Part shown: piece by piece, positions 21,001-60,266 of the stretch
Numbering within the stretch: position 1 is the first letter of the stretch
How the letters are laid out: each line of letters starts with the position of its first letter
NCBI GenBank assembly: GCA_018062825.1
Contig: JAGORL010000003.1
Span: 1,058-65,057 of the forward strand
Direction of reading: 5' to 3'
Length of the DNA: 64,000 nucleotides
Source of the DNA: Patescibacteria group bacterium
Lineage (GTDB): Bacteria > Patescibacteriota > Patescibacteriia > UBA9934
The notes under the pieces: model-generated
What the model was told of the DNA's origin: nothing
Seen by the model: only the letters and a program-made list of their open reading frames with translations
Database searches by the model: none
Translations under genes and position numbers: made by a program

Positions 21001-22318
21001 CGCCATCGCCGAGAGTGACGGCGCCGTTTGCTACGAAGGCAGAGCCGTTTGCGACCGTGGTTGCGCCGTTAAGCGACACTGCGCCTGTACCGGTTGAAAA
21101 GGAAGTAGCACCGGACTGCGTAAAATTACCATTCATTGAGATGGCACCAAGACCAGTGGCGTCACCGGTTGCGGAAATGTCCCAGTCACTTGAATTGATT
21201 GCGACTGTGTCGCCATTGTCGCCGAGAGTTACCTGGCCATTGGCAGCAAAAACTCCGTTTGCGGTGGTTGTACCAGTGATATTCAATGCAGCAAGAGCAT
21301 TCAATGCACCGCTCACCGCAAGCGATCCAGAAATGGTTTGATTACCAGATAATGTGAGTTCAGCTGCGCTTACATCAAGATTTCCCGAGGCGTCCGCACC
21401 GAGAGTGACGTCATTGCCACCTGAGGAGTACAGCGTCAAAAGACCGTCGGCAGAACTATCTGTACCAAGATAGAGCGTTGAGGCGGATTCATCAAAGTAC
21501 AAGGAGGCTCCAGCGATTGTGGTGTCACCAAGGACAAGATCATCGGTCGCAGAAGTGAGGTATGTAAACGTGCCATCATCGGTCCATTTTGAACCGCCAG
21601 CACCGATCGCTGAATCAAGATCGTCTAGGATGTCTTGCAGGTTTGTGCTGCTAGAATTGGTAAATTCATCAAATACTCCAATGAGTGCTGCACCTGAGGT
21701 AACAGAACTTACACCAACTGCATCAAGCAAAATGCCATCGATCTCCACGGATCCAACATCTACCCCGCCAGACATGACTAGATTGCCACCGGTTAGGACT
21801 GGGATATCGGATCCGGTAGGTGTTTGTGACGGCGTGAAGCCGCCAAGGGTGTTGGCGTTGATTGCGTAACCGGAGGATGTGATGCGCTGACGCGGGGAAA
21901 GGGTTTCAAAAGTGACGCCAACACAAGAGCCTGCAACTTGAGCAGCGATTTCGGTATTGAGGTAAATCTCATCCGTAGATTCGAAATCGAAATCGAGTAC
22001 ATCTCCCCCAGCTCCAGTATCACCGATGCCGATATTGAAGACGCCGTACACGACCTCAGCGGTCATGGTGCTTGGAGAACCAGCTGGCCAGACTTTTACA
22101 TCGCCACCACCCGGAGCTGCGTCATCGTAGAAAGAGAAACGGAAACAGTAATCTGTACCCGATCCGCCAAGCAAATTATTTGAGGCATCGAGTAGGCGGC
22201 CTTGGTGTTCAATAATAGTCGGAGCACCTGTTGCGGCAACAGCAAACGGAACACCTTGAAAAAAGGGTCCTCCGATAGTCGACATGAACACGAAAATTGC
22301 AATGATGCGCCGCAGCAT
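1..22318 (-). CDS. giant tandem-repeat cell-surface protein (partial; at least 7,439 aa in window; C-terminus lies beyond the window start)
   Basis: The ATG at 22318 is directly preceded by an in-frame TAA at 22319-22321. The translation begins [31 protein letters not shown], a signal peptide or TM anchor, followed by an N-terminal domain [11 protein letters not shown]...[18 protein letters not shown]. The reading frame (first codon base at position congruent to 1 mod 3) was checked and is the same at 22318, 20230, 15535, 8533 and 1285. No in-frame minus-strand stops occur in 1-400. Typical repeat translations are [47 protein letters not shown] and [42 protein letters not shown]. Every minus-strand ORF the track lists here is in frame 0, none in frame 1, which fits a single open frame running off the edge. 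The ORF is absent from the track, presumably because there is no stop in the window. Confidence 0.8.
1200..21600 (-). repeat. nested in-frame tandem coding repeats: a ~768-bp (~256-aa) unit in at least 18 copies, some expanded to 1.56-1.7 kb by an extra ~0.8-kb module; each unit contains 2-3 sub-repeats of ~80 aa built around ..[16 protein letters not shown]..
   Basis: The plus-strand marker ttccctcttg (antisense of ..QEGTNNY..) recurs at about 1876, 2921, 4582, 5353, 7061, 8231, 9001, 9772, 10543, 12137, 12905, 14468, 15235, 16827, 17593, 18333, 19926 and 20664, plus a variant at about 2391. The intervals are about 770 bp or about 1,590 bp. The motif gatgtcccaatc recurs roughly every 240-270 bp. 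Copies are imperfect, about 85-95% identical by eye. Confidence 0.85.
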
Positions 22319-43461: not shown

Positions 43462-43508
43462 GCTCGTGCCCCGCCTTGCAGTAATGCTTGGTGGGGCTTT
43501 GTTATTTA

Positions 43509-43537: not shown

Positions 43538-43562
43538 TCTTCTTGTCACTTTTGGAGGAACC

Positions 43563-43994
43563 ATGCGAAAGATCGCAACGCTGTTTGGTGCCTGGTTGGC
43601 CACGGCCGCGATTCTCATTTGTATCGATTGGCTGTACGTCAGCCCTTGGATGCAGGCGGGAAATGCGGCGACGAGCGCTGATGTGGACCTTATGCTTTCC
43701 GCCAGGTTGTGGTGCATGGAGGCTGACTATTGCAAGGTCCGGGTCCGTGACTCCACGGTTCAGGTACTCTCGATCTACAACAAGCGGGAGCATGTCCTCG
43801 AGGCCGAGCTCCCCCGAGGCTCACAGGTCTTGAGTATTCTCGCGTCACTCTGCGACCACAAGGACTGTGAGATCGAGGGTGACGACCAAAGTGCCATCAT
43901 TCGCCAGGATGGCCGGGATGCGGCCATGCTCTTGCACAACGACGATGGTCGAATCTCGACCCACATCCTCGCTCCGGCCATGGCCCGCGAGTAA
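43563..43994 (+). CDS. hypothetical small membrane-anchored Cys-containing protein (about 144 aa)
   Basis: The product begins MRKIATLFGAWLATAAILICIDWLYV, an N-terminal TM helix. The remainder probably faces outward and contains 4 Cys. The track extends the ORF back to a TTG at 43488, but the promoter and ribosome-binding site support 43563. Confidence 0.55.
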   Translation: MRKIATLFGAWLATAAILICIDWLYVSPWMQAGNAATSADVDLMLSARLWCMEADYCKVRVRDSTVQVLSIYNKREHVLEAELPRGSQVLSILASLCDHKDCEIEGDDQSAIIRQDGRDAAMLLHNDDGRISTHILAPAMARE

Positions 43995-44040: not shown

Positions 44041-45154
44041 ATTGGTTGATGCGGAAGTGACAGACGTCACCATCTTGCACAATGTATTCCTTGCCTTCAA
44101 TGCGGAGCTTGCCGTTATCACGCGCACCGCTCTCGCCGTCAAAAGCCACGAAATCATTATAGGAGACCACTTCTGCGCGAATAAAGTTCTTTTCAAAATC
44201 AGTGTGAATGACCGCCGCTGCTTGCGGCGCCTTCATGCCACGCTCGATCGTCCAGGCACGCGATTCTTTTTCACCGGTGGTGAAATAGGTCACGAGATTG
44301 AGAAGTTCGTAACACTTTTTGATCACCTTATCGAGACCGGATTCGTTCATGCCGAGTGCTGAAAGCATCTCTGCCGCTTCCTCTACTGACAAACTCGCGA
44401 GTTCAGCCTCAATCTTTACGGAAATTGGTACTGCAAGACGATTTGGGCCAAGCGGTGAAACCCATGCCGGATTTTTTGCGGCCTCTTCATCAACGTTTAC
44501 CACGTAAAGAATTGGCTTGTTGGTGAGGAGCTGAATGGTCTTGACCGCTTCACGCTCTTCATTGGTAAGTTCAACGGAACGAGCGAGGTGACCTTGCTGC
44601 AGTGCAGTGTTCCACTTTTCAAGTGCTGAAGCTTGGGCGGCCATTTCTGGCGTTTTGCCAGCTTTCATTTTGCCGGTAATCGCATCGAGCATCTTTTCCA
44701 CGGTAGCAGCATCGGCCATTGCTAACTCAAGCTCGATAACCTCAACGTCACGGGCTGGATCAATCGAGCCGTCGACGTGGACGATGTCGTTGTTTTCAAA
44801 GGAGCGAACGACGTGCGCGATCATGTCGACCTCACGAATGTTGGCCAGGAATTTATTACCAAGACCCTCGCCTTTATGAGCACCCTTTACAAGACCGGCG
44901 ATATCAACGAATTCAATCGCGGTTGGAATGATCTTGGTGGAGTTCGACATCTTTGAGAGGGTTGCAAGGCGCGCATCTGGCACCTCAACAACACCAACGT
45001 TTGGCTCAATAGTACAAAAAGGGAAGTTTGCGCAATCAACCTGTTTTTTGGTGAGCGCAGTAAAGAGAGTGGACTTTCCGACGTTTGGAAGCCCAACGAT
45101 GCCAACATTCAACATAGATTTGCGCAGTGTAGTCGAAAGATCCTTACTGTGCAA
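44039..45154 (-). CDS. ychF: ribosome-binding ATPase YchF (Obg-like GTPase family)
   Basis: A G1 motif GLPNVGKST, a TGS domain and overall YchF conservation are present. The probable true start is the internal Met ([15 protein letters not shown]) at about 45115. Confidence 0.9.
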
Positions 45155-47444
45155 CGGTTTCAGTCTCCACAGGAGCAGGCGCGTTTAGCCGCTCCAGGCG
45201 CTGCTTAGCGGCGGCGTTTTGTGGGTCATCCGCGAGAATGAGCTCGACTTCTTTGATTGCTCCTGCAATATCCCCTGCCTCTTCTGCGATAATCGAAAGG
45301 TACCAGCGGGCGTTTGCGAAGGTTGGAGCGATCTCAAGTGCCTTTTCTAGTTCAATTTTTGCTAAGTCGCTGCGTTCTTGGCGCATGTAGAGCAAAGCGA
45401 GATTCAAGCGTACGCCAATATCAGTTGGGGCGGCATCGCGTACCTTTTCCATGGCAACAACGGCTTCATTCACGAGGCCGCGGGCATCGAGGGTGACGGC
45501 CTGGAAATAGAGGGCCGGAATGTAGTCAGCTTTTAATTTGATCGCTTGAGAGAATGCGACATCAGCCGCCTCTAGGGCCTCAGCGCGCAGCGTAATGAAC
45601 TGCTCACCGCCCGGCGCTTCTGATTTCTGACGCAGCGATTCAGCGATAGCTAATTGAGCGCGCCCGATGCCGACGCGATACTTTGGATTGACTGGTGAGA
45701 ATTTGATCGCCTCCTCATAGCTGACGAGGGAAAATGGCGCGCCATCGGTCACAACGCCGGCGATATCGCGATATAAATCACCACGCTCAGCCCAGCGCAC
45801 AGCACTTGTTGGAGCAAGATCAGTAGCTTTGACGGCGGCATTAATAGAGGAACCAAGTAGTGATTGTACGACTTGTGGATCTGATAGTGGATCACGCGCT
45901 ATGACATCGGCTTTGGTCAGAAGGACACGAGACAGCGCGGCATAGTATGCATCGTTCCAGCGATTGCGACTGGCGGCTTTATCTAGAAGCAGGATTGCTT
46001 CATCATAGGAAGCCTCACCTTCACGCGTTAGTGCTTTTGCATACAGCATCTCTGCGCTATAGCGAGAGAGCGTGAAAACTGAAAGAAACAGCACGGCAAT
46101 GATCGCAACTGAGCCACCAACAAGTGAAGCGGCGCCGACCGCGGCCGTATCTTTCATCTCTTTTTCTTGCGCAGAGCCTGGAGCAAGCGCCGTACCAAGT
46201 CCAGCGAACACGATCATGGTTGCCGCGAGCGTAAGAGTTTGCGGATAGAGACAGGCGGCGATTACTGAGCCGAGAAAGGCGATAAGGGCGGGTGTTGCTG
46301 GAAAGGAACCGTCTTTACCACGATGCAAATGAGCGAGCACGATACAAATAACAAAGATGCCCCAAGCAATGGTGCCGAGTATGCCGAGCGTGGTTAGTAG
46401 GGTGGCGACGTGTGAAAAACCGCGATCAAAACGGGCGTCCCAAAAATCTGTTTGATTAAGGCCAGCATTGTGGTGCAGGTCAAAAGCCAGAGCAAATGTT
46501 CCTGGACCTGAGCCAAACAACAAACGCCCGTCTGCCCAGGTGGCTTTGGCGATATTGAAACTAGCAGCGGCATTTGGACCAACCTCGAGCGGCAAGGCGG
46601 CAAAGAAGCGAGGTGACGCTACGAGCATGCTCACGCTCATTAATATAAGGAGCGCGATTGGAATAAAGCGTACTGACAGGCTACGAATGCTTTGCGATTT
46701 GAACCCGGCGGCAAGAATGCCAATGGAACACAAGAGCGCCACAACCCACACGACAGTGGCATCGAGTGCTAAATAAAATGGAATTGCGATAACAAATGAT
46801 GCAACACCAGCAAGTGTTATGAGGCGACGATCTGCCTGTTCAAGTACTGGCGCAAATGACGTGCCCTGCAGGGCAATATACGAAAGCGTGAATAGATGCG
46901 TGAGTATAAGAAAGATACCGGTGACAGTTGGTGTTCCGGTTGGTAAGCCCTGGATGCCAATACCCACCCCAAGAATACTGAGCGTTGCTAGTAAACTTAC
47001 GAGCCCTGAACTTACAATGATCGACCACATGATAGCGCGGCGACCAACGATAGTTTTAGCGGCAACGGTGATGGCAGAAAAAAAGAGGAAGAAGACCACG
47101 GCGCCAATGACGCTTGTGTACTCTTGCGTGCTGTAGCCTAGAAAACTTGCAGGTATGCTCCACGAACTTATTGCCGAAATAGTTAGTGCTGAGATCCAAA
47201 TGCCAAAGCCAAGGAGTGCGAGTGGTGTTGGAAGGAAAAGCTTTTTACCAAGAAGAACACGAATCGCTAAACAACAGGTAGCGACAAGCACCCAGCCTGT
47301 AAGCCAGACGAATTTATTCAGCTCAAGCGGCTCTGCTGTCCACGGTGCAATAATAAACGGCAATCCCAGGATTGCGATAGCAACAGCGAGCCCTGCACCG
47401 ACAATAAGAGCATTTGCCAATCCCGTAGCCTTTTGGTGCGTCAT
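45144..47444 (-). CDS. polytopic membrane protein with an O-antigen ligase/Wzy-like core and C-terminal TPR repeats (766 aa)
   Basis: About 12 TM helices are followed by a periplasmic-loop motif of Wzy_C type (..GSGPGTFALAFDLHHNAG..). The C-terminal ~300 aa carry TPR-like repeats. The gene sits immediately downstream (9 nt) of the 2,049-aa surface-protein gene. Confidence 0.6.
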   Translation of the reverse strand: MTHQKATGLANALIVGAGLAVAIAILGLPFIIAPWTAEPLELNKFVWLTGWVLVATCCLAIRVLLGKKLFLPTPLALLGFGIWISALTISAISSWSIPASFLGYSTQEYTSVIGAVVFFLFFSAITVAAKTIVGRRAIMWSIIVSSGLVSLLATLSILGVGIGIQGLPTGTPTVTGIFLILTHLFTLSYIALQGTSFAPVLEQADRRLITLAGVASFVIAIPFYLALDATVVWVVALLCSIGILAAGFKSQSIRSLSVRFIPIALLILMSVSMLVASPRFFAALPLEVGPNAAASFNIAKATWADGRLLFGSGPGTFALAFDLHHNAGLNQTDFWDARFDRGFSHVATLLTTLGILGTIAWGIFVICIVLAHLHRGKDGSFPATPALIAFLGSVIAACLYPQTLTLAATMIVFAGLGTALAPGSAQEKEMKDTAAVGAASLVGGSVAIIAVLFLSVFTLSRYSAEMLYAKALTREGEASYDEAILLLDKAASRNRWNDAYYAALSRVLLTKADVIARDPLSDPQVVQSLLGSSINAAVKATDLAPTSAVRWAERGDLYRDIAGVVTDGAPFSLVSYEEAIKFSPVNPKYRVGIGRAQLAIAESLRQKSEAPGGEQFITLRAEALEAADVAFSQAIKLKADYIPALYFQAVTLDARGLVNEAVVAMEKVRDAAPTDIGVRLNLALLYMRQERSDLAKIELEKALEIAPTFANARWYLSIIAEEAGDIAGAIKEVELILADDPQNAAAKQRLERLNAPAPVETETVAQ

Positions 47445-47453
47445 AGCACCGTA

Positions 47454-50400
47454 TTATGGCGTTACTTCAAGAACTTCATCAATCAGCTCTTCCCCACCCT
47501 CGATATTTTCTTCTTCGACTACAGGCGCAACATCCTCTACCACCGGCTCATCTTCCGTTTCAATCTCATCAACAACGACCTCTTCTGAATCGCTTGATTC
47601 ATCAACTGGAGTCTCGTCTACGACCTCTTCATCTTCAACGACTACCTCCTCATCTGACTGATCTTCAGATTCATTCAGCACCTCTTCATCTTCTGGAAGA
47701 TTGTCTTCAGGGACTTCAGGTGGCTCTGGCTCTGTTACTACCGGCGCTACAGTTTGCGCGTAGTCTTTATGGGTACCAACAACCAACCAATCTACGAGAA
47801 TGCCGTCTGATCCGGAGGAGTCACGGATAACAAAGCTGGCTTGATCACGATTTGTGACCGAGATCTGACCGGTGGCGCCATTTGGCGTGACGAAAACGCG
47901 GTACGGAACCTCGTTACTTATGATGTCGTTGAACTTTGGATCAATGCTCTCGAGATTAACAAGTGCCGTACCGTTTTGCAGCGTTGCTGTGCCTGAGAGC
48001 TGAATGGTCATTTCGCGACTTGTGGCGGCGTAGGTTTCAACGTCCTCGTTCTGATATGAACGAACGAGTTGCACAAGACGACCTTCGGTTTCAATATCGC
48101 CGTTACCGGAAATACTCCAAGCGCCCCCAACGCCCTCTATTGATCCAACTGAGAAGATGCCGCCGCCATTCATGTTGAGCGTGCCGGTGATATCAAGGGT
48201 TGCGACCGTTGATGACGCTAGGCCGCTGATTGCTGTATCGGCTGCTGGGGCAACATTTGTGCTAGCGCCGTCATAGTAGGAAGCACGAACAAACACGATG
48301 ATTGAGCCATCACCCGAAGCATGATCCTCCATGGCATAACCAACAATTGGTCCTGGCTGGGTGGCCTTCATGGCGTAGCCTGGCTTTGAACTCGTAGTAA
48401 GCGGATCACCAACCTTAATCGCACCATTTTCTGAAGAAACGAAGGTTGGTACGCGACCGGCAAGCGCTACTGGATACTCGCCATCGCGCCACTCACCTGC
48501 CAAGAAACCAGGGCGTGTTGAAACAATGCCAGCAATGCGGTCATCGTACTTCTTACCTGTTGAACGGGTCATTTGCTCGCGACCTGTTCCGAAAACGACA
48601 ACTTCACCTGGCACAAGTGCGTCAGGCGATGGGAACATTTCCGCAAAATCATACGAACCAGTGCTCCAACCGGCGGCATTGGTACGCATGTAACCAAGAC
48701 CGGAGCTGTCGTAATAAATGTAAGCAGAATTCTGCATGGCACCGCTATCCGATGGGTAGAAACGACCAGCGAGCGATAGATCACCGTTTTGATTGATAGA
48801 TGCTACCTCTGTGCCGGCGGTATTTGTTACAGCTAATCGGTACGCTGAGACGCTATCAACCATGGTTTCAAGACCCATAGCTACTGATTGGGCTGATGAA
48901 CCGTTCCAAGCAGAGCCACGGAAGCTGAGAAGCTCCGAGCCGTAGTTTGCTGAACTATTTGCGGTGGCGAGTGAGGCGAGCGCGAAGGTTTCTCGCATAA
49001 CGATAGCTGAGCCATCGCTTGTAATTGTGCCTTCGGCTGACCAGGTTGGCTGCACCATGACCTTAATAACGCCGGAACCTGCTGCAAGTGGCTCAAGCGC
49101 ATAGCCGAGCACGCGTGACGGACCGCCAGCTTTGCCGACAGCGCCAGCAACTGATGAAGAAGTAGTAACAAGATCGCCAACTGCAATCGCGCCATCTGCT
49201 GCAGAAGCTGAAACATCAATCTGACCGATCAAACCGACAAGACGATAGTTTGCCGGGATGCCGTAATCAAAAGACTCTTGGTAGTTGCCAATGAAACCTG
49301 GATTTGTTGAGATCGCACCAATGATCGAAGTCTCTCCTGGAGCGCACTCTTTTACGCCGTTGAGCGTTGATTCATCACGACAAACAACATCGTTGCCGCC
49401 AAGGCTACCATCTGAAGAGATCATCCACTCCGCTAAGTCGGCTCCACCACCAGTAAAGGAACCGTCGGCAAACGCATCGCCATCTGCCTCAAAACGGAAC
49501 TCGATATCCGGGGTGCCGTCCGCGTCTGAGCGGAAGACAACGAGTTCATCATTACTTGCCGTTTCATTAGTATCAACAAGCAATGCAAAGTTGGTGGTAG
49601 TTGAACTATCGCTCACCGTGTTTTGCTCAATACGCATGGCTGACGAGTTTGTTTGCGTGCTGTCGTTTCTGACATGGAAAACGTGGTTATCAAATGAGGT
49701 GTTGTCCGAGAAGATATAAGCGAGAGGCGATGTAGATGTACCGCCGTTTGTATAAACAGTGAGTCCGTAGTCATCGTTACCAGTGTTGCCGACATGCAGC
49801 GCACCGCCCACCTCATTTGTTACCGTCGTGCTGGTTGATTCATCTTGCTGTATGTTTACACCGCTTCCCGTACCATCATTTTCTACCTGAATTACCGCTC
49901 CAGTTGCGCCAGCATTGCCCTGCGCAACAGAAATTACGTGCGCGCTGTCTGTAAGCGTGCCTGACGTATTAGCGTTATTACTTATAAGCTGCAGCAAGTC
50001 TCCGGTTACCGAAAGCGCACCACCGCTATTGTTTGTGAGTGCTCTCGTTACAGAAATGCCGTTACCAGATACCGTGGCGGGTGCAATATATGTCGCAGTG
50101 TGCGATAAACGAGATAAGTCACCGCTAGTTAGCCCGGTAGAGTTAGAGCTTACTTGTAATCCAACTCCGGATAGCAACCCGTTTACCGTCACGTCCAGGG
50201 CTGCGGCCGTTGTAATCGTGCCGCCATCGATGTCTATAAAGTCAACGCCACCGCTGTTTGAAGAAAAATCAATCGTGGCTCCGTCGTTAAAAACAGCGAA
50301 CGGTGTACCACCGGTTTGAATAATATGATCTCCGGTACCGGTCATCGCAATATAAAAATTTCCCGTGTCATCAAGTTCAACGTTGAACTGATTGGTGCCG

Positions 50401-53400
50401 AGAGCAATATCCGTTGATTCGTCAAGATTGAGCTGGAACTCTAGCGAGTCAAAATCTAAACAATTTGGACAGTCTAGGGCAGTAAACGTTGCGGCGCCCG
50501 TTGCATCAATACTCCAATCATCTCCACCCGTGAGATCTAGCAGAAATGATGCGTTGCTGTGACCTAAGGTCAGAGTATCGGTTCCAGCTGGGGCAATGAT
50601 CATGTCTGTTCCCGCCTCGATCGTGAGTGCATTTAATGAGTTTGAAGAAATGTTCAAGTCGCCGTTTGACGCCAGTGCGTCAGCGTACACTGTTGGGATA
50701 TCAAGATATGCTGAACTTGTAATAACTCCAGCGTTGTCGACATCGAAGTAGGTAAAATCAATCGCCGCTGCGGTTCCGATGATGTCGTTTGCGCCAAGGT
50801 CGATACCTGTTCCGATTGAAGTATCACTTAAGCTAATACCTGTTCCGTAGCCACCGGTACCAACAAGATCTAAACCGATGCCAACTGATTCGTTGGAATC
50901 GTTATTAGCAAGACGAATAAAAGCATCAAACGTACCAGTCGCGCCGCCGTCATCATTGTTTGCCAAGAACATGAGGTAATTTGCAGCAGTGCTTGCCGCG
51001 GCAGTGTTCGTAACTCTGAGATCAAATGGATTGATCGAGGTGTCAGTTGTATGTGCAACGTCGATATCGGTAAATTCGCCATCAACAGTGTTTTGGTTGA
51101 TATCTAGCGTGTCGCTAAAAATTGCTGCTCCAGATGTTGCATCAATAGCAAAAACCTGTGATCCGAGATCTTGGATCTCGAAGTTCCCTACCGAAGTTAA
51201 GTTCCAAACTACGTCATTTGCGGCCGAAATTGTTAGGCTGCCATCAGTCGTCATGCTGTCTGCGAACTCTGTAAAATCGAGACTATCAGCAGCAATAGTT
51301 CCGCCGTCTTCCCATGACAAGATTCCCAAACCATCCGTTGATAAGAATTGACCGCTTGATCCGTCGGTTGCCGGTAACGTCCAGACCGTGTCGGACGCAA
51401 TGGCATCAGGAGCCTTGAAACCGACATAGTTACTACCAGCGAGCTCGACAAACGCAGCGAATCCTGTCTCACCTGGAAGGACGCCGACCGCCATCAGGGA
51501 TATCTCAGGTGATCTTAGGCTTTGCAGGTCAACGGTATGAAATTCGGCATCACCGTCTGCGCGAATCTGCCAATCGTCACCACCATTAATCGCAACCGCT
51601 GTTCCGACGTTGTCGTTGCCGATGTTAATTACATCTCCGGAGGTAACGTTTGTCGCGATGTTGATCACGTTTGCAATATCACTTGTAACACCACCAATAT
51701 CAATATTTGTTGTACTACCTCCGCCATCGAGGAAATTAAGCGTGGTGCCGTTTGAAGTAATGTCTCCACCATTTAGTGCTACATCCAAAAAGTTACCGAG
51801 CTCAGCAATGACTGTGACAAATTCAGCTTCGCCAAATTGATCAATATACCAATCATCACCACCGGTTATATCGACGATCGTATCGGTATTACTGTTACCG
51901 AAAAAGAGAATGTCGCCGGTAGTGTCATCAGTTGCCATGAAAATAGTATTTGCCTGATCTACTGTTACGCCGCCAAAGTTTATGTTCGGCGCACTGAGTG
52001 CGTCGTTCATGAAGTCAAGATCATTCGTTGAGATAAAATCACCACCGGCGATTGAGAGATCGCCATCGGTTGTAATATTTCCACTAGTATCAATGATTAT
52101 TTGGTTAGCGGTGAGATCTAAATTTCCCGACGCATCAGATCCGATGTTGATGCTTGAAGATCCACCGCGAAGAAGAATCGTTCCTGGTTCAGAATCACTA
52201 CCGACGTAAAGTGTTTCAGTAGACGTATCGAAGTATAACGGCGCTGTAGTTGTCAGGGTGCTACCAACGACTAAATCGTCCGAGGTGCCAGTTAGGTACG
52301 TAAAAGCGCCGGCATCAGTCCATTTTGAGGAGCCGGCAGCTAGCGCATCTATTGCCGTATCAAAATCCGTGAGCACACCTTGCACATCCACCTCAGAGGA
52401 TTGCGTAAACAAGGCAGAGTCTACACCAACAAGCGTAGCGCCGGCGGTTCCTGAGCTTTGACTTAGCCCGACACTGTTGATAACGAGATCACCGGTATCG
52501 ATATTCAAATCACTCGTTAAATTGACTGACGGGGCGTTTATATCGAGGCCTCCAGAAGCTGCGCTCAATGTAACTGACCCGCTAAAGCCGTCATATAGCA
52601 CAATCGATCCACTCTGAACGGTATCGATGCCTAGTAATAACTGCGCTTCGGCTTCATCAAAATAGAAGGTCGCACTACTAATCTCATCACCACCTATCAA
52701 AAGCCCGTCGTCTAAATCGGTGAGATATGTAAACGCTCCATCGTCAGTCCATTTTGATGAACTGACGGCTAAGGCATCGATTGCCGTATCGAAATCGGCT
52801 AGAACCCCTTGAACTTCTGTACCGATTGACTGAGTAAAGGCTGACGTATCAACGCCAACAAGGGTGGCGCCGGCGGTTCCGGAACTTGCATTTAGAGCAA
52901 CGCCGCCAATGATCACATCGCCTTCACCGTCGATTCGGAAGAGATCGGTGCCGCCAACTGCAACGCCAAAAATGGTATCGCTCGCGTTTACATCAAGGGC
53001 AGCTGGGTTGATATACATTGAACCTTGAGAAACGCCTGAACCCGTTGGATTACCGGTAACGACAAGAGCACCGTTGGCATTAAAAGCTGGAAGTGCGGAT
53101 TGAGTAGAGCCAACAAGCGTCGTGTCCAATCCGTCGACCAGGCTGCTATTTATAGCGTAAGCAGCCGACATGACACGCTTTCTTGGAGTTAGCGTTTCGC
53201 CGTTAATTGTGACTTGGAGAAAGACGTTGGCGTTATCGCCGAAGACTGATTCAGGAATAGCGGCGTATGGATCACCAAGCGTGGTATTTCCGAGTGGCTC
53301 GGAAAAGAGACCGTCCGTAAGCGTTACCGTGCGAGCAGTGGCACTTACACAAGTACTCGAAGTGTTTGACCACAAACACGTTCCTCCGGAAACAGCGGTG

Positions 53401-53603
53401 TAAAACTCAAAGATAACGCTTGCGGAAGCTGCAGAGACAGGAACACCATTGGCGTTTAATAAGCGACCTTGATACTGAACGATGTTTGCAGGAGTTGCAG
53501 CAACGACTGACTGTACATTTAACGCTACCGACTGAAATGCCAAAATCGCTAGTATGCAAATACTGGCGAAACGCTTAAGCAAGTTATGCGGTCGGTGATT
53601 CAT
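47454..53603 (-). CDS. giant exported repeat protein (2,049 aa), paralogue of the >7,400-aa protein
   Basis: The signal peptide MNHRPHNLLKRFASICILAILAFQSVALNV is followed by an N-domain (..QYQGRLLNANG..PRKRVMSAAYAINSSLVDGL) that is homologous to the N-domain of the gene at 22318. A shared module SSKWTDDGAFTYLT..LYFD occurs twice. A ~130-aa C-proximal module is duplicated (..GFIGNYQESFDYGIPANYRLVGL.. and ..GFLAGEWRDGEYPVALAGRV..). The protein ends in a very acidic ~90-aa tail. Confidence 0.85.
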   Translation of the reverse strand: MNHRPHNLLKRFASICILAILAFQSVALNVQSVVAATPANIVQYQGRLLNANGVPVSAASASVIFEFYTAVSGGTCLWSNTSSTCVSATARTVTLTDGLFSEPLGNTTLGDPYAAIPESVFGDNANVFLQVTINGETLTPRKRVMSAAYAINSSLVDGLDTTLVGSTQSALPAFNANGALVVTGNPTGSGVSQGSMYINPAALDVNASDTIFGVAVGGTDLFRIDGEGDVIIGGVALNASSGTAGATLVGVDTSAFTQSIGTEVQGVLADFDTAIDALAVSSSKWTDDGAFTYLTDLDDGLLIGGDEISSATFYFDEAEAQLLLGIDTVQSGSIVLYDGFSGSVTLSAASGGLDINAPSVNLTSDLNIDTGDLVINSVGLSQSSGTAGATLVGVDSALFTQSSEVDVQGVLTDFDTAIDALAAGSSKWTDAGAFTYLTGTSDDLVVGSTLTTTAPLYFDTSTETLYVGSDSEPGTILLRGGSSSINIGSDASGNLDLTANQIIIDTSGNITTDGDLSIAGGDFISTNDLDFMNDALSAPNINFGGVTVDQANTIFMATDDTTGDILFFGNSNTDTIVDITGGDDWYIDQFGEAEFVTVIAELGNFLDVALNGGDITSNGTTLNFLDGGGSTTNIDIGGVTSDIANVINIATNVTSGDVINIGNDNVGTAVAINGGDDWQIRADGDAEFHTVDLQSLRSPEISLMAVGVLPGETGFAAFVELAGSNYVGFKAPDAIASDTVWTLPATDGSSGQFLSTDGLGILSWEDGGTIAADSLDFTEFADSMTTDGSLTISAANDVVWNLTSVGNFEIQDLGSQVFAIDATSGAAIFSDTLDINQNTVDGEFTDIDVAHTTDTSINPFDLRVTNTAAASTAANYLMFLANNDDGGATGTFDAFIRLANNDSNESVGIGLDLVGTGGYGTGISLSDTSIGTGIDLGANDIIGTAAAIDFTYFDVDNAGVITSSAYLDIPTVYADALASNGDLNISSNSLNALTIEAGTDMIIAPAGTDTLTLGHSNASFLLDLTGGDDWSIDATGAATFTALDCPNCLDFDSLEFQLNLDESTDIALGTNQFNVELDDTGNFYIAMTGTGDHIIQTGGTPFAVFNDGATIDFSSNSGGVDFIDIDGGTITTAAALDVTVNGLLSGVGLQVSSNSTGLTSGDLSRLSHTATYIAPATVSGNGISVTRALTNNSGGALSVTGDLLQLISNNANTSGTLTDSAHVISVAQGNAGATGAVIQVENDGTGSGVNIQQDESTSTTVTNEVGGALHVGNTGNDDYGLTVYTNGGTSTSPLAYIFSDNTSFDNHVFHVRNDSTQTNSSAMRIEQNTVSDSSTTTNFALLVDTNETASNDELVVFRSDADGTPDIEFRFEADGDAFADGSFTGGGADLAEWMISSDGSLGGNDVVCRDESTLNGVKECAPGETSIIGAISTNPGFIGNYQESFDYGIPANYRLVGLIGQIDVSASAADGAIAVGDLVTTSSSVAGAVGKAGGPSRVLGYALEPLAAGSGVIKVMVQPTWSAEGTITSDGSAIVMRETFALASLATANSSANYGSELLSFRGSAWNGSSAQSVAMGLETMVDSVSAYRLAVTNTAGTEVASINQNGDLSLAGRFYPSDSGAMQNSAYIYYDSSGLGYMRTNAAGWSTGSYDFAEMFPSPDALVPGEVVVFGTGREQMTRSTGKKYDDRIAGIVSTRPGFLAGEWRDGEYPVALAGRVPTFVSSENGAIKVGDPLTTSSKPGYAMKATQPGPIVGYAMEDHASGDGSIIVFVRASYYDGASTNVAPAADTAISGLASSTVATLDITGTLNMNGGGIFSVGSIEGVGGAWSISGNGDIETEGRLVQLVRSYQNEDVETYAATSREMTIQLSGTATLQNGTALVNLESIDPKFNDIISNEVPYRVFVTPNGATGQISVTNRDQASFVIRDSSGSDGILVDWLVVGTHKDYAQTVAPVVTEPEPPEVPEDNLPEDEEVLNESEDQSDEEVVVEDEEVVDETPVDESSDSEEVVVDEIETEDEPVVEDVAPVVEEENIEGGEELIDEVLEVTP

Positions 53604-56151
53604 GTTCCTCCGATGTGTGGTCGAGATCTACGTTACGAGCAAATGTTTCCGGTTCTTTCTTTTGAGAATAATCAACCGGCCGAATTTCAAATGGTGCGTA
53701 TCCGGGCTTTGCGAACATGACGTAGTACTCGTTAGGACCGAGAAAGAACGCGTATCGTCCACGGCTATCGGTAAGCGTGGATTCAACAAGTTTATTATAC
53801 TTTGGTTCAAACAACCGAATGATGACATTACCCACAGGCTGCTTGGATTTTTTATCACGCACAATACCCCAACCAGTCACCTTCTTTGGCTTTGAAAGTC
53901 GAGATGAGATTCCGTACATCGCAACCTGAGCGCTTGCAAGCACAATTGAGAATGTTGTTGGCGAAATAATTGCGGCAGCAATTGCGAGCAGCACACCAAT
54001 TGGAGCAACAATACGAACAAATACGCGCAAGAAGCGCTTTAAGGCGAGCGCTCGAGGTTCGTTATATTCTTTAGCATCTGATGGATCGAGCGGGATGCTT
54101 GCACTTAGATTCGTGTCTGGATCTGTCACTTCAATGATCTGACCCGCGTAAACATCGACGTACTTTCCATCATCAGCACGATTTGCCACGTACTTAGAAG
54201 GGAAGACGAAGCCCGGTTTCACAACCTGCAGTATGTACGCACCAACTCTTGGCACAAAGAGGAAATATTGTCCCTTGGCGTTAGACACAACTGACTTAAC
54301 GATGCGCTTTGTTTTTGCATCGACAAGACGAACAGTGGCAAGCTCGATCGGAACTTTTGTCACGCCGTTATAGACAATGCCGAATTTTTGCCGGCGCTTC
54401 TTGGAGAAGATCAAGAGCGGCGACGTGAAGCCGTACTGCAGTAATGACAATAGGTTGAAGCTATTTGCAAGCACGGCGGTTGTAGTACCGACAGCTACGA
54501 TCGAGACTGGAAGCGCGATATCAGCGGCTACCTTCGCCTCTTCTGAGTCAAGGACCTCGTTGATTTCGGTAATTGGTAGCGCTTCAAAAAACTCAATAAT
54601 TTCAGGAGCTACCTGAATTGGTACGTTAAAAATTGGAACATTTACTTCCGTTGGCTCTTCAACTACGGGTTCACCTGGCTCCTCTACCGGTAGCTCAACG
54701 ATTGGCAGGCGGGTTATTTCTAAAACGCCGCTCAGCTGATTGTCACGAACCGTTACCACTGTTGAGACTTCTTCATAGCCGGCCTTGGTGACAACGATAC
54801 GGTATGCACCGTTTGGTACAAGAAATGCGAATCCCCCGCCTTCACCAGTTATAACCGGATTGCGCTGACTATAGACGCCTGCATCCCAAGCAACGCCTGA
54901 CCCACGACTTAAATCGTAGACGGTTACAATTGCGCCAGGAATTCTTACAGTAGCTGTGCCGATTGTTTCGTATACGTAGCCACCGGCAAGTGGCGCGAGC
55001 ACGACACTTTGCTCAAATCGATCTCGATCATTCTCTATTACAACAACCTGCGCCGTTGTCTGAGCGATAACCGCCGGAACTTCAGCGGTATAAACACCGT
55101 CCCCCAGGCTTTGTGCCGGATACTGCGTGCCGTCGATCACCACAAACACCTCAGCTACGCCTAGATCATCACCAACATCCACCACAACGCCAACAACGGT
55201 TCCCGCGGCAACAGGAATCGTGAGTGTGGTGTCATTAAAAGCAATTCCTCCTGAAACAACATCAACATCGACATCCCGGCGATCAATAGCATCACCGTCG
55301 TCACCGTCTTCTGGATCATCTGATCCATCGTTCTCGTCATCATCCGGGTCGCCGTCACCTGGCTCTGGATCTGGTTCCGGGTCTGGGTCAGGTTCAGGGT
55401 CTGGATCAGGTTCTGGATCTGGATCTGGTTCCGGGTCTGGGTCAGGTTCAGGGTCTGGATCAGGTTCTGGATCTGGATCTGGTTCCGGGTCTGGGTCAGG
55501 TTCAGGGTCTGGATCAGGTGGTGGGTCGCCTCCGCCACCGTCATCATCTTCCTCGCCATCGTCAGCACCAGTAACTACCACTGACACACTTGAATCACTT
55601 GCGGTAATGATTGGTACCGGAATTGAGCCTTCATCTCCCGAAGTTGCCTGTAAATCAATAAAGTACGTTGCTGGTACCGCCGGATTCACGATGCGATTTG
55701 TTCCAAATCCGGAAGCGGCGGCGTTTGTTCCGATCTCGATCGTAACAACGCTACCTGAGGCGATCGCTCCACCGTCACCACTACAAATAGATAGCGTTAC
55801 TATATCGCTACTCACGAGAACTCCAACCTGCTCAACTCCTGCGCAGTTAGCCGCTGTTGTCAGATCAACGCCATCATCAGCAATATCAAGATCATCCTCG
55901 GTGATCGTGGACGTATCAAAGTCTGCCGGGAAAACAAGCGTCAATTCTCCTGACTCGGTAAGTGTTCCGCTTAGTGTAAAGGTGAAACGCTGATTACTCT
56001 CGGCACCTATCGCTAGACTACTGGGTTGCGAGGTTAGACTGCCGACAGTATCAGCGCGAACGATGTTTGGTAATAAAACAAAAGATTGCGCAATCGCAAG
56101 ACTAGCGAGCGCACTCCAGGTGCTAAAAATTCTTACCCATGACTTTCTCAT
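53584..56151 (-). CDS. exported, membrane-spanning protein (855 aa) with a (DPDPEP)n linker and three carboxypeptidase-regulatory-like beta-sandwich domains
   Basis: It has a signal peptide, an acidic low-complexity linker (DDDGGGGDPPPDPDPEPDPDPEP...), 2 internal TM helices (..VAPIGVLLAIAAAIISPTTFSIVLASAQVAMYGI..) and CarbopepD_reg-like segments (e.g. ATVRLVDAKTKRIVKSVVSNAKGQYFLFVPRVGAYILQVVKPGF). Confidence 0.8.
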   Translation of the reverse strand: MRKSWVRIFSTWSALASLAIAQSFVLLPNIVRADTVGSLTSQPSSLAIGAESNQRFTFTLSGTLTESGELTLVFPADFDTSTITEDDLDIADDGVDLTTAANCAGVEQVGVLVSSDIVTLSICSGDGGAIASGSVVTIEIGTNAAASGFGTNRIVNPAVPATYFIDLQATSGDEGSIPVPIITASDSSVSVVVTGADDGEEDDDGGGGDPPPDPDPEPDPDPEPDPDPEPDPDPEPDPDPEPDPDPEPDPDPEPDPDPEPDPEPGDGDPDDDENDGSDDPEDGDDGDAIDRRDVDVDVVSGGIAFNDTTLTIPVAAGTVVGVVVDVGDDLGVAEVFVVIDGTQYPAQSLGDGVYTAEVPAVIAQTTAQVVVIENDRDRFEQSVVLAPLAGGYVYETIGTATVRIPGAIVTVYDLSRGSGVAWDAGVYSQRNPVITGEGGGFAFLVPNGAYRIVVTKAGYEEVSTVVTVRDNQLSGVLEITRLPIVELPVEEPGEPVVEEPTEVNVPIFNVPIQVAPEIIEFFEALPITEINEVLDSEEAKVAADIALPVSIVAVGTTTAVLANSFNLLSLLQYGFTSPLLIFSKKRRQKFGIVYNGVTKVPIELATVRLVDAKTKRIVKSVVSNAKGQYFLFVPRVGAYILQVVKPGFVFPSKYVANRADDGKYVDVYAGQIIEVTDPDTNLSASIPLDPSDAKEYNEPRALALKRFLRVFVRIVAPIGVLLAIAAAIISPTTFSIVLASAQVAMYGISSRLSKPKKVTGWGIVRDKKSKQPVGNVIIRLFEPKYNKLVESTLTDSRGRYAFFLGPNEYYVMFAKPGYAPFEIRPVDYSQKKEPETFARNVDLDHTSEEHESPTA
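55361..55527. repeat. 54-bp tandem repeat (about 3 copies), itself built from 6-bp (ctggat/ctgggt/caggtt) sub-repeats, encoding (DPEP/DPDP)n
   Basis: The sequence ctggatctggatctggttccgggtctgggtcaggttcagggtctggatcaggtt is repeated. The antisense ORF 55161..55568 shows an 18-aa period repeated 3 times. Confidence 0.85.
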
Positions 56152-57071
56152 GCGGTCGCCCGCTTGTGTAACGCGCGTGCCAAAAGTATACCAAAGATAA
56201 GGAGCGAAATAAGCGCAGCGCCTATCACCATGAGGTGCATCGGGATGACTGTGAAGCGGATAGCTGGATTTGCTGAATCAACAAGATCGCCTTGTGCATC
56301 AACGATTACAGCTTCAAAGGAACCGTATGGAGTACTTAATGCGTTTCCTAAGGATCTCCAACTAATCACATCTGTTTCATCTCCCCAGTTCGAAAGAAAA
56401 ATACGACTCGTCTGAACTGGTAAACGTTGACCGTAGGCATTTAAAGGTATTTCCTCGATGACCTGCGTTTTTCCGGGTCGACGGATCTGAATCGTGGCAG
56501 TTGGGGCAACTGCGCGGTCGCCAACATTCTTCAGCACAGCGCCCAACTGTACTGGCAGTGAAGTAACGACGGACTTTGGCGTCTCTAGCTGCACAATCTG
56601 GTATGCCTGCGTTCCTTCGGTTCCAATTTGCGCAAATAACATAACGGCATACCCAGCGCCAACTGATACGCCCGCATTTGCGGACATGCGCTCGACAAAT
56701 AGCGCAGCGACTGTGTATTCAGCCGACTCCGCCTGCGGGGGTGCCGCAAAACGCAGCGTTACATCTAGGGTATCGCTTGGTCTTAGGGTCATTGAGGCTG
56801 GATCGGCGCTAAACATTGCCGCTACATCACCTGCCAATGGTGAGAACGCTGGTGCACCAGTTGTACTATCAAAGGTTACTTGCACGAACTGCACTTCATA
56901 CTCACGGTCGACCGAAGTCTCGTTCTCAAGTGAAATGATCGCCTCTCCAATGCCGCCAGACAGCACAGAGTAATCTGCTGAGGTTGGCGAAATAGTTAAA
57001 GCGTGACTCACTTGTGCTGCTCCAAAAAATGCAACGAGTAGCGTGAATAGTCCAAAGAGCAAGCGACGCAT
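56148..57071 (-). CDS. hypothetical exported protein (307 aa) with a signal peptide and a C-terminal TM anchor
   Basis: The product begins MRRLLFGLFTLLVAFFGAAQVSHA and ends with the C-terminal TM segment MHLMVIGAALISLLIFGILLARALHKR. It overlaps the next gene by 4 nt, so the two are co-transcribed. Confidence 0.7.
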   Translation of the reverse strand: MRRLLFGLFTLLVAFFGAAQVSHALTISPTSADYSVLSGGIGEAIISLENETSVDREYEVQFVQVTFDSTTGAPAFSPLAGDVAAMFSADPASMTLRPSDTLDVTLRFAAPPQAESAEYTVAALFVERMSANAGVSVGAGYAVMLFAQIGTEGTQAYQIVQLETPKSVVTSLPVQLGAVLKNVGDRAVAPTATIQIRRPGKTQVIEEIPLNAYGQRLPVQTSRIFLSNWGDETDVISWRSLGNALSTPYGSFEAVIVDAQGDLVDSANPAIRFTVIPMHLMVIGAALISLLIFGILLARALHKRATA

Positions 57072-57073
57072 AT

Positions 57074-57994
57074 TTAGTAGTTACCTACAAAAATAAACGT
57101 TAAGTTGTGATCATAGCTCCCATCAAGAGCAGTATCTGACACCGCTGCCTTCAAAGTAACGAAGTCGCGACTTTCAAAGCTTGATGAGGCTCGACTCCCT
57201 ACTTCTTGCAAACTACTTGTGATGGCAGTGTCTTGTGTATCAAACGTTGAACTTGCTAGCGATGTATCTGATGACCTAGCGCCATATTCTGTTTCACCAA
57301 GGGTAACTGCCCCATCACTTACATCCGTAATAGCATCACCATCACCATTTTTCAGATCGTCGTCTTCAAATATGTACACGGAGTACCCGCCCGTGACGTC
57401 AACGTTCACTTCCCAAGCAACAATGCCGGTTGTTAGTGTACTTGGCGTTAAGGACGCGAGCGGCACCGTTGTTCCCGATAGCGCATAAACGAAATCATTA
57501 TTGCCGTCGATCGTAATCGCGCCACCGGTAAACTCATCGATATTGAGCGTATTTACTGAAACTGAAGTAATCCGGCCGATTGCTGTGATTTGTGAAGCTC
57601 CTTCGTTTTGCACAACAGCAATAAGGTCACCAGCTGCGTAGCTTGAAGCATCTGTGACGTCGACAGAGCTACTCGTAGCTGAGACCGCCGCAACTTGCGA
57701 AGCCGTATCTTGAGCGTAAACAGCAAAAGCTACGACTGGATCATAGATCTGCGAGCGGTAACCGAGCATTCCTTGATAGGAGGCTGAATCACCGAGACCT
57801 GACGCGTCGTTACCAAAGCTGTCGCGCAGCTGATAACTCGCCGAGCTACTCGTGTCATCGCCACTAGCGCCGACGGTATCGCTCAAAATCTGGTATGAGG
57901 TTGACGACATATTGGCGTCAACCTTTTTTGTAGCTAGCATTAGCGAAAAAATGGCCAATGTTCCGATTAATGCTGCTGAGGATATTTGTTTCAT
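57074..57994 (-). CDS. hypothetical secreted Ser/Thr/Asp-rich protein (306 aa)
   Basis: A signal peptide MKQISSAALIGTLAIFSLMLATKKVDA is present. The protein is of low complexity and acidic. It is the first gene of the surface-protein operon, 2 nt from the next gene. Confidence 0.7.
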   Translation of the reverse strand: MKQISSAALIGTLAIFSLMLATKKVDANMSSTSYQILSDTVGASGDDTSSSASYQLRDSFGNDASGLGDSASYQGMLGYRSQIYDPVVAFAVYAQDTASQVAAVSATSSSVDVTDASSYAAGDLIAVVQNEGASQITAIGRITSVSVNTLNIDEFTGGAITIDGNNDFVYALSGTTVPLASLTPSTLTTGIVAWEVNVDVTGGYSVYIFEDDDLKNGDGDAITDVSDGAVTLGETEYGARSSDTSLASSTFDTQDTAITSSLQEVGSRASSSFESRDFVTLKAAVSDTALDGSYDHNLTFIFVGNY

Positions 57995-58039
57995 AACGCT
58001 TCATGAACACAATATGTCGTCATGACCATGTTTCACAAG

Positions 58040-58440
58040 GTGTTTTACACACAGTTGTGTGGATAACCTCTCTAAAATCTGTGGATATGTTTCATATCCA
58101 GAAGGCTAGCCTAGCGTGGACAAAACTGTTTCATACTCTGCTACCACAGTGTCTTATCCACATGACATGAACAGGTGTTAACTCTTGGTCCTGTCGGCTA
58201 CTTAAAAGTTTTTTTTGATGCCGTGATCCTCAAGCTAACCCAGGCTTATCCCCAAAGTAATACACAGCTGTAGATAACCTGTTTCATACGTGACAAAAAA
58301 ACCGCCTTTAGTTGCATAAATGGCAGTTTCACATGGAATGAGGTATCGATTTTCTGGTTTTCTTATCTGATTTGGCCGTACTATTTGTAATTTGTGGTTA
58401 ATAAAATAAAATCTCCTGCAATCTGATCTGGTTTATTACC
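58040..58440. promoter_or_regulatory. candidate chromosomal replication origin (oriC): a DnaA-box cluster with an AT-rich DNA-unwinding element
   Basis: DnaA boxes are TGTGGATAA (about 58058-58066, perfect, reverse orientation), TGTGGATAT (about 58080-58088), TTATCCACA (about 58154-58162, perfect), TTATCCCCA (about 58246-58254), TGTAGATAA (about 58269-58277) and TGTGGTTAA (about 58393-58401). An AT-rich stretch lies at about 58345-58425. Six copies of TGTTTCA(T/C)A are interspersed. No ORF of 60 aa or more spans 57995-58609. Confidence 0.45.
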
Positions 58441-58609
58441 GGACGGAGTGCGTAATGTACTTATTCATACATCTACAATCCCGTACACGATCTGACCAGC
58501 ACAAATACTAGGAGACTTTTTTTACCGAACTAGCTACTGAATCGAACCTTGTCTTTGGGTACTATTATCAAGAGTATATGCCAAAATTTGTTTAATATTA
58601 GCCAAATTA

Positions 58610-58685
58610 TGGTGCCCCCACCTGGAGTTGAACCAGGATCCCAGGCTTAGGACGCCCGTGTTCTATCCAATTGAACTATAGGGAC
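58610..58685 (-). tRNA. tRNA-Arg (anticodon CCU) with a genomically encoded CCA
   Basis: Folded by hand. The acceptor stem is GTCCCTA/TGGGGGC, with 2 G-U pairs. The D-stem is GTTC/GAAC with G18 and G19 in the loop. The anticodon stem is CGGGC/GCCTG with loop GTCCTAA (U33, A37). The variable loop is 4 nt. The T-arm is CCTGG-TTCAACT-CCAGG, with G53-C61. The discriminator is A and CCA is encoded. Total length is 76 nt. Confidence 0.7.
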
Positions 58686-59925: not shown

Positions 59926-59958
59926 AAAAAACCATCCGGCAAAACCGGATGGTTTTTT
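59926..59958. terminator. bidirectional rho-independent terminator between the convergent rmuC and rpsT genes
   Basis: The sequence is aaaaaaccatccgg-caaaa-ccggatggtttttt, with A-runs and T-runs on both sides. Confidence 0.7.
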
Positions 59959-59959
59959 A

Positions 59960-60229
59960 TTACTTAGCGGACACCTTATTGATACGCAGGGTGGCGCGGC
60001 TCTTCAAGCGAGAAGCAGTGTTACGCTTCAAGACGCCCTTAGCTACTGCCTTATCCAAGGCCTGGTTCATGTCCTTGAGAAGCTTAGCGGCTTCATCAAC
60101 TTTCTTATCATCAAGCAATTTGCGGAATGAACGGCGCATGAAGTCCAAAGTTCCTTTGGCTTGCATGTTGCGCTCAGCGCGGCGCTCGCTCTGGCGCAAG
60201 GCTTTTTTAGCGTTTTTGAGATTTGGCAT
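59960..60229 (-). CDS. rpsT: 30S ribosomal protein S20
   Basis: The 89-aa product reads MPNLKNAKKALRQSERRAERN.., which is typical of S20. Confidence 0.9.
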   Translation of the reverse strand: MPNLKNAKKALRQSERRAERNMQAKGTLDFMRRSFRKLLDDKKVDEAAKLLKDMNQALDKAVAKGVLKRNTASRLKSRATLRINKVSAK

Positions 60230-60266
60230 AATCGTGGCAGATAATAGCGGAATTATAGGCTATCGG

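Follow-up and report, generated by a model that had tools for sequence, protein, structure and literature searches.

A conserved operon of Candidatus Uhrbacteria that may encode a cell-surface attachment apparatus

We analysed a 64,000-nucleotide (nt) stretch of DNA, referred to here as the window (assembly GCA_018062825.1, contig JAGORL010000003.1, positions 1,058 to 65,057), from a Patescibacteria bacterium of the Candidate Phyla Radiation (CPR) that stands near Candidatus Uhrbacteria. It contains a cluster of five genes, g1 to g5, which on balance we take to be one conserved Uhrbacteria operon that builds a cell-surface attachment apparatus; the product is probably a structure for holding on to other cells. 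Uhrbacteria are single-membrane cells that, like most other CPR bacteria, are uncultured. The cluster is a prime candidate for attachment and host recognition because it is lineage-wide, adjoins genes of core replication, is headed by a near-consensus promoter in many relatives and encodes the fastest-evolving giant surface protein of the lineage.

Results

All five genes are on the minus strand. The first gene of the operon, g1 (306 amino acids (aa), 57074..57994), encodes a Pam-family pilin-like subunit and is followed by g2 (307 aa, 56148..57071), for a membrane-anchored PapD-like/WxLIP-like chaperone, g3 (855 aa, 53584..56151), for a proposed membrane anchor with a wall-spanning stalk, g4 (2,049 aa, 47454..53603), for a putative MAT-type, phage-tail-fibre-like surface fibre, and g5 (766 aa, 45144..47444), for a polytopic membrane protein with C-terminal TPR repeats. 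The spacings g1-g2, g2-g3, g3-g4 and g4-g5 are 2, -4, -20 and 9 nt, and a promoter/terminator scan found no terminator-like signal above chance within the cluster. A hydrophobic, signal-peptide-like segment opens each of g1, g2, g3 and g4, and the AlphaFold models have an N-terminal helix in g1 and in g2. The initial annotation had drawn from the sequence an operon of tightly packed genes for exported proteins, with signal peptides on all four of g1 to g4, and the coordinates, spacings, conservation and N-termini agree with it. At NCBI, g1 (KBC55_03285), g2 (KBC55_03280) and g5 (KBC55_03265) are all recorded as "hypothetical protein".

The g1 protein appears to be homologous to the Pam pilins, as a distant member of that family and not a PamT equivalog. 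It matches the NCBIfam model CPR_pilus_PamT (NF058579) with E 2e-8 and 33.9 bits, under the 240-bit cut-off; 75 of the 76 members of the g1 family match the same model, the best at 9e-16, and 35 of the 76 match CPR_Pam_pilin_C (NF058581). Its 295 homologues (45-80% identity) all belong to Patescibacteria or Candidatus Uhrbacteria. It is the most conserved protein of the cluster, and its properties are those of a structural subunit rather than a helper. In the AlphaFold model residues 88-306 form a beta-rich body with a predicted local distance difference test score (pLDDT) above 90, preceded by an N-terminal extension of 58 residues (29-86; 57737..57910, minus strand), a candidate donor-strand segment that starts at the predicted mature N-terminus and contains three S-x-S-Y-Q-[IL]-like repeats. 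In the model, residues 27-46 and 48-82 come out unfolded (pLDDT <50), yet the extension is conserved like the folded body (major-residue frequency 0.65 vs 0.60 and 0.66), as would be expected if this strand needed a partner in order to fold. NCBI annotates g1 from Met29 (278 aa, P0003), and so without the signal peptide, as it does several orthologues; we favour the long form because an in-frame, signal-peptide-like stretch with n-, h- and c-regions (window 57911-57994, residues 1-28) is conserved in all orthologues examined. The C-terminal Y306 is invariant and G292, 14 residues upstream, nearly so, an arrangement reminiscent of the C-terminal motif of chaperone-usher pilins, which we take as a lead only. 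Neither a single-sequence search of the PDB (no useful match) nor the family profile (no match) found a relative of known structure, so that Pam pilin structures are either absent from the PDB copy used or too distant; a BFVD fold search gave weak sub-domain matches only (TM-score ~0.2). The g1 family hidden Markov model found no second copy in the 64-kb window.

The product of g2 consists of a signal peptide, two beta-sandwich domains and a C-terminal transmembrane helix at 278-306, the last as the initial annotation had it. The AlphaFold model (pLDDT 93) likewise shows two beta-sandwich domains and then a membrane helix, and its predicted fold is that of a PapD-like two-domain chaperone: the comparison list gives CfaA 13.2, EfmWxLIP1 12.2, EcpB 12.1, CsuC 12.0, SafB 11.9, FimC 11.7 and PapD 10.7 (WxLIP structures: PDB 9i1y, 9i25). 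The g2 family profile finds the EfmWxLIP1 sequence with E 3.8e-6, and 13 of 60 family members match Pfam WxLIP_PGBD, for which g2 alone reaches no threshold; these matches point to homology between the g2 family and enterococcal WxLIP. A full HMMER search gave 364 cluster representatives of equal length and architecture, a word-indexed homologue search 2 proteins only, and a single-sequence search of the PDB nothing useful. One metagenomic protein, P0188 (1,146 aa), joins a g2-like chaperone and its transmembrane anchor to a g3-like protein. The topology is consistent, in that the g3 signal peptide would act as a second membrane pass, and P0188 is either a genuine fusion or a product of faulty gene calling where a stop and a start overlap.

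The g3 protein has, in order, a signal peptide, an N-domain (~34-195), an acidic, proline-rich stalk (196-295) with a (DP/EP)n run at residues 213-264, beta-sandwich domains and two hydrophobic regions of ~40 aa each (539-583 and 704-748), each of which may hold one helix or two and is followed by a K/R cluster and then a CarboxypepD_reg domain (Pfam E 2e-23, three stretches). The linker and the three carboxypeptidase-regulatory-like domains had been noted in the initial annotation and stand; its "two transmembrane helices" are ambiguous, given the length of these regions. Across 41 orthologues conservation is concentrated in the N-domain, where two cysteines are invariant, and in the C-terminal membrane/CarboxypepD_reg units; the acidic, proline-rich stalk varies, as does the middle. 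A profile of the N-domain found no match in the PDB and no similarity to g1. We infer that g3 is a membrane anchor which presents its N-domain beyond the wall.

The base domain of g4 (residues ~37-165; 53109..53495, minus strand) is common to g4 and to a giant paralogue of at least 7,439 aa, encoded on the minus strand at 2..22318 by a stop-free frame that runs past the left edge of the window. In isolation the base matches NCBIfam Bdello_MAT_N (NF053851) with E 5.7e-7 and 29.5 bits (cut-off 60), and 19 of 20 orthologous base domains do so as well, the best at 1.2e-10 and all under the 60-bit cut-off; these scores argue for homology with the N-domain of the Bdellovibrio MAT fibres. The N-termini of g4 and of the giant align at 33% identity over 390 aa (BLASTP, E 4e-28). 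An SKWTD/FTYLT module, duplicated in g4 (228-339 vs 371-481, 57% identity), matches three further sites in the giant at 42-43% identity, and the giant comprises the MAT_N-like base and four SKWTD modules at residues 243, 1010, 2044 and 3607. The proposal of the initial annotation that giant surface proteins of this genome form a family with one N-terminal base in common, with a shared N-domain and a shared SKWTD/FTYLT module, withstood this formal alignment.

Towards its C-terminus g4 carries a second duplication (1386-1521 vs 1649-1776, 35% identity, E ~1e-13), also noted beforehand, which corresponds to two Peptidase_G2-like modules on the minus strand: residues 1376-1521 (49041..49478), with D-L-A-E at 1389, and residues 1640-1779 (48267..48686), with D-F-A-E at 1652. 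The match to Pfam Peptidase_G2 (PF11962) has E 1.4e-4 and 21.8 bits (gathering threshold 25). Against the PDB, a profile of the module found the chaperone domain D4 of tailspike Dpo31 (28nb, E 6e-5) and the C-terminal domain of phi29 gp12 (3gqh, E 1.8e-4), both collinear in two segments, and since the latter alignment begins at the first residue of the chain, candidate autoproteolysis sites can be placed before D1389 and D1652. Two copies of the module are present in 35 of the 43 module-bearing orthologues. The protein ends in an acidic tail (residues 1956-2049; 47457..47738, minus strand) of 94 residues, 46% D/E and without K/R, in line with the poly-acidic tail of ~90 aa first described, and the g4 orthologue of locus L003 has such a tail too.

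Among g4 orthologues the ends are conserved and the middle is variable. Identity to the closest relative, L085, is ~72% over residues 1-300, 24-48% over 300-700, ~76% over 800-1000, ~50% over 1100-1300 and 90-99% over 1300-1900, the region of the second Peptidase_G2-like module being 94-99% identical. Such a mosaic fits a fibre whose base and assembly module stay fixed and whose putative binding region diversifies. A single-sequence search of the PDB with g4 gave nothing useful, apart from a weak hit (E 0.055) on the triple-strand fibre of the phage protein HylP; no S74 chaperone-protease was matched in g4, and Pfam matched no WxL domain in g4 or g1. In IMG/VR viral contigs no relatives of the g4 base or of g1 were found, and a PHROG scan of g1-g5 matched only a TPR family, for g5, which indicates that the genes are cellular. 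A recent phage origin, or a prophage, was rejected on these grounds and on the weakness of the BFVD hits. In Pfam the giant also matches AraC_binding_2 (E 1.7e-19 and 1e-10, although none of the individual stretches passes) as well as ORF_12_N (E 2e-6), the latter recorded faintly for the 3,487-aa g4 orthologue of locus L001; these are probably summed weak matches to repeats.

About 12-13 hydrophobic segments occupy residues 1-470 of g5 and TPR repeats residues ~520-755. The initial annotation had rightly seen a polytopic protein with TPR repeats; its further identification as O-antigen-ligase/Wzy-like found no support and was dropped, since Pfam Wzy_C (PF04932) is not matched even at E<=10, Pfam and NCBIfam find TPR only, the homologues likewise have TPR domains only, and a profile of the membrane part has no match in the PDB. 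At none of the thresholds used did g5 or a homologue of it match a glycosyltransferase family. A loop motif is conserved in g5 (FGSGPGTF...FDR..SS..LT.L.T.G..GT), which resembles ligase-type loops and serves as a lead only.

To place the cluster among its relatives, one genome per GTDB species was scanned with a 14-sequence g1 alignment. A g1 relative was present in 102 species, from which 80 loci were examined, and virtually all of those on a sufficiently long contig have the order g1-g2-g3-g4-g5. By locus count, g1 is present in 84/84 and g3 in 77; the counts of g4 and g5 are bounded solely by flank length, and g5 is the next gene after g4 in 28/28 loci of sufficient length. The initial annotation had named synteny in relatives as a test, and gene order is indeed retained in about 80 related species. 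The called genes are packed as tightly as in the window, g3 and g4 overlapping by 20 nt in the window and in L085 and lying 1 nt apart in L001, and protein lengths range from 984 to 3,487 aa for g4 and from 683 to 1,364 aa for g3. The wider order is polA-holA-(S20)-rmuC, a tRNA and then g1-g2-g3-g4-g5. Many operon-bearing contigs (L010, L016-L018, L022, L025-L028 and others) are titled "uncultured Gammaproteobacteria bacterium", and there are single contigs under "Methylococcaceae" and under "Candidatus Kapaibacterium"; since all carry the gene content of Uhrbacteria, these titles are evidently taxonomic errors in public records of metagenome-assembled genomes.

In many relatives (e.g. L003, L014, L033, L043, L062, L073 and L082) a near-consensus sigma-70 promoter, TTGAC-17-TATAAT, lies directly 5' of g1. 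In a consensus over 70 loci it ends ~8-20 nt before the g1 start codon and is accompanied by a conserved palindrome, TTTGTCTAC..GTAGACAAA, and by GCTAA..TTAGC; some of the spacings would imply a leaderless mRNA or one with a very short leader. The window and the relatives nearest to it have a degenerate -10 element. The region itself (57995..58609, minus strand) is AT-rich and non-coding and holds a cluster of DnaA-box-like sites (TTATCCACA, <=1 mismatch): 6 of the window's 10, including both perfect boxes, fall within 344 bp (58058-58401), where ~0.06 sites are expected. The cumulative GC skew of the window has its minimum at ~58-60 kb, and in 65 related loci DnaA boxes occur at 2.1/kb in the same intergenic region vs 0.17/kb elsewhere. 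The region directly 5' of the operon is thus a candidate replication origin or DnaA-controlled region. Between rmuC and g1 lies a tRNA-Arg(CCT) gene (58610-58685, minus strand), found at the same place in 68/70 loci, with a promoter-like site ahead of it (58781-58753, 10/12 matches); 40 loci additionally have a tRNA-Ala(CGC).

The housekeeping genes around the cluster in the window include polA, holA, rmuC, ychF (next after g5), recA, ftsK, efp and ruvC, together with two open reading frames (ORFs) of 1,348 and 1,098 aa at 23015-30332 which we take to be rpoC and rpoB. Three ORFs have no Pfam or NCBIfam match: 627 aa at 30726-32609 (minus strand), whose product starts with a hydrophobic segment, 236 aa at 42751-43461 (plus strand) and 168 aa at 43488-43994 (plus strand). 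A fourth, of 120 aa at 59949-60311 (plus strand), has no NCBIfam match. A sub-threshold Rfam match to the CPEB3 ribozyme inside g4 was dismissed as chance.

Discussion

We regard g1-g5 as one unit because (i), the genes are tightly spaced or overlap, (ii), g2 and g3 seem to occur fused, (iii), g1 is preceded by a near-consensus promoter in many relatives and, (iv), a tail-fibre-like gene is reported to adjoin the pam operons of other CPR classes. From homologies, folds, gene order and conservation patterns an architecture may be suggested. All five products would be exported by Sec. Tethered by its C-terminal helix, g2 would hold g1 and keep it folded through beta-strand complementation, and g1 may polymerise into a filament or form a surface platform with its N-terminal extension as donor strand, joining other copies of g1 or g3. 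In the membrane, g3 could act as anchor or base and push its N-domain outward on the proline/acidic stalk. The Peptidase_G2-like modules of g4 would serve as intramolecular chaperones for trimerisation and probably be cut off at D1389 and/or D1652; the MAT-type base may dock g4, and the giant encoded 25 kb away, on the g1/g3 structure, leaving the fast-evolving middle of g4 to bind the host or partner cell. The TPR membrane protein g5 would be an accessory factor.

Several observations weigh against this reading. All family scores are under their curated cut-offs (PamT 33.9/240, MAT_N 29.5/60 and Peptidase_G2 21.8/25 bits). The cluster has a single pilin-like gene, nearest to PamT, and PamT has been proposed to be a non-polymerising tip subunit (bioRxiv 10.64898/2026.03.03.709456). 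Neither a two-domain pilin of the PamA/B type, with its inter-domain donor linker, nor an RbmA-like PamR (two fibronectin type III domains and a C-terminal transmembrane helix) was found in the cluster. BLASTP and hhalign detected no domain common to g1 and g3 or g4, and hence no direct sign of docking. Lastly, the flanking housekeeping genes (polA, holA, rmuC) are equally syntenic, so gene order by itself is no proof of functional coupling.

A non-filamentous complex of the WxL type, in which g2, as has been proposed for the WxL clusters of Firmicutes, tethers a monomeric g1 and perhaps further partners without any pilus and g4 is a separate adhesin on the same complex, is conceivable and in our view unlikely. 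A small subunit, a WxLIP and a large host-binding protein would mirror the commonest WxL cluster (PMC10599100), and the single pilin-like gene suits a structure that does not polymerise. However, g1 is devoid of W-x-L motifs, its sole tryptophan, W194, lying in WEV; its sequence relatives are the Pam pilins; and g1 has no domain in common with g4, unlike the small and large WxL proteins, both of which carry the WxL domain. Moreover, a simple tether would leave the conserved, unfolded extension of 58 aa in g1 unexplained.

A bolder form of the attachment apparatus, which we put forward tentatively and hold to be rather doubtful, is a hybrid appendage in which g2 loads g1, and g1 with the g3 stalk makes a docking base for MAT fibres, the >7,439-aa giant included. 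According to Caulton et al. 2024 (PMC10769870), the N-terminal domain of MAT proteins "would presumably tightly bind" a surface element not yet identified; if the hybrid is real, g1 and g3 would be this long-sought "surface element", and the Pam pili of CPR bacteria, the WxL clusters of Firmicutes and the MAT fibres of predatory bacteria would belong to a single ancient toolkit for cell-to-cell attachment among bacteria living on other cells.

Still less probable, we believe, is the chance neighbourhood of two unrelated systems, a small Pam/WxL-like module of g1-g2 (perhaps with g3) and an independent MAT-like fibre gene, g4, with g5 as its own accessory membrane protein, brought side by side by the collinearity of Uhrbacteria genomes. 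It would account for housekeeping neighbours as conserved in order as the cluster, for a giant that has the same base 25 kb away and lacks partners like g1-g3, and for the want of a domain shared between g1/g3 and g4. It sits poorly with the overlap of g3 and g4 in the window and L085 and their 1-nt separation in L001, and with the lack of any terminator-like signal above chance inside the cluster. A "tail fibre-like protein" also consistently adjoins pam operons in other CPR classes (bioRxiv 10.64898/2026.03.03.709456), which amounts to an independent recurrence of the same association.

The initial annotation had proposed a module for making, displaying and perhaps glycosylating giant surface proteins; a reading of this kind, in which the small proteins would be secretion or assembly helpers and g5 a Wzy/O-antigen-ligase-like glycosylation enzyme, we consider very improbable: g5 does always come directly after g4, its conserved loop is a lead, and a modification of PamA Ser356 stands unexplained in the Pam preprint (bioRxiv 10.64898/2026.03.03.709456), but the failure to find a Wzy_C or glycosyltransferase family in g5 or its homologues leaves glycosylation unsupported, and small genes that merely "make and display" the giant are at odds with g1 as the cluster's most conserved protein, a pilin-family structural subunit, and with g2 as a pilin-type chaperone or tether.

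Read as one attachment apparatus, the operon would connect Pam pili, WxL/WxLIP complexes and MAT fibres, three systems each known from a description of its own, and would offer a concrete candidate for the anchor of MAT-type fibres on the cell. It would extend the Pam-type principle of chaperone and subunit to a CPR group outside the main text of its first description, and the g4 modules supply defined constructs for autochaperone cleavage in a cellular, non-phage fibre. We found nothing in the literature on surface structures of Uhrbacteria. The initial annotation had recognised no described system here, a judgement now superseded by the homologies of g1 to Pam, of g2 to WxLIP/PapD and of the g4 base to MAT.

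The closest parallel is the Pam pilus of the CPR bacterium Candidatus Mycosynbacter amalyticus (Troman et al., bioRxiv 10.64898/2026.03.03.709456), where PamC and PamD are PapD-like chaperones with a C-terminal membrane helix. As in that system, the genes are restricted to CPR bacteria, all components would be exported by Sec with neither usher nor trans-envelope machine, g1 appears homologous to pilins, g2 has the fold and C-terminal transmembrane helix of PamC/PamD, and a tail-fibre-like gene is in the neighbourhood. The differences are considerable: Uhrbacteria, of the Parcubacteria group, are not mentioned in the main text of the preprint; a single pilin-like gene takes the place of PamA, B, E and T, and a single chaperone that of two; g3 (multi-pass, CarboxypepD_reg) and g5 (TPR) stand in place of the RbmA-like PamR; ATP-synthase genes are not nearby; g1 scores far under the PamT equivalog cut-off; and it has an N-terminal extension and not an inter-domain linker strand. 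Without PamA/B-type pilins or PamR, and with scores under the cut-offs, the cluster is not the Pam system as defined.

For the WxL clusters, the prediction of Hassan et al. 2023 (PMC10599100) is that a strand of WxLIP (DUF916-DUF3324-transmembrane) completes the WxL sandwich. These clusters resemble g1-g5 in the three-part architecture of g2, in the apparent homology of its family to WxLIP, in a gene set that joins a small subunit to an Ig-like partner tethered to the membrane and adds a large host-binding protein, and in the proposed mechanism of beta-strand complementation. They differ in that g1-g5 has no WxL domains or W-x-L motifs, has a MAT/phage-fibre large protein and belongs to CPR bacteria, not Firmicutes; for want of WxL domains it does not qualify as such a cluster. 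Nor is it a classical chaperone-usher system (Pap, Fim, CFA/I, Csu), since no usher-like gene was found in the cluster or the window; there is no outer membrane, the g2 chaperone is membrane-anchored and g1 is not a single Ig-like pilin domain.

The MAT proteins of Bdellovibrio bacteriovorus are trimeric, phage-like adhesive fibres (PMC10769870). Like them, g4 has a signal peptide followed by a conserved, apparently homologous beta-rich base of ~130 aa, a long mosaic fibre with a variable part and, at the C-terminus, a predicted chaperone of phage type; the base recurs in several paralogues of one genome, and the organism lives on other cells. Unlike them, g4 has a chaperone that is Peptidase_G2-like and duplicated, not S74, and an acidic tail; the proteins are far larger (2,049 and >7,439 aa), the trimer is putative, the gene shares its operon with those of a pilin and of a chaperone, and the score is under the NCBIfam cut-off. 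With the phage autochaperones (phi29 gp12, 3gqh/6qz9; Dpo31 D4, 28nb) the g4 modules share the start motif D-[FLY]-A-E-[YWM]-[FM] and the collinear segments (I/V)G(V/I)xS and LxGQ(V/I), although the gene is cellular and the module is duplicated and followed by ~270 more residues. Taken together, the cluster would work like the Pam, WxL/WxLIP and chaperone-usher systems and adds to them a MAT-type fibre, a new combination in Uhrbacteria.

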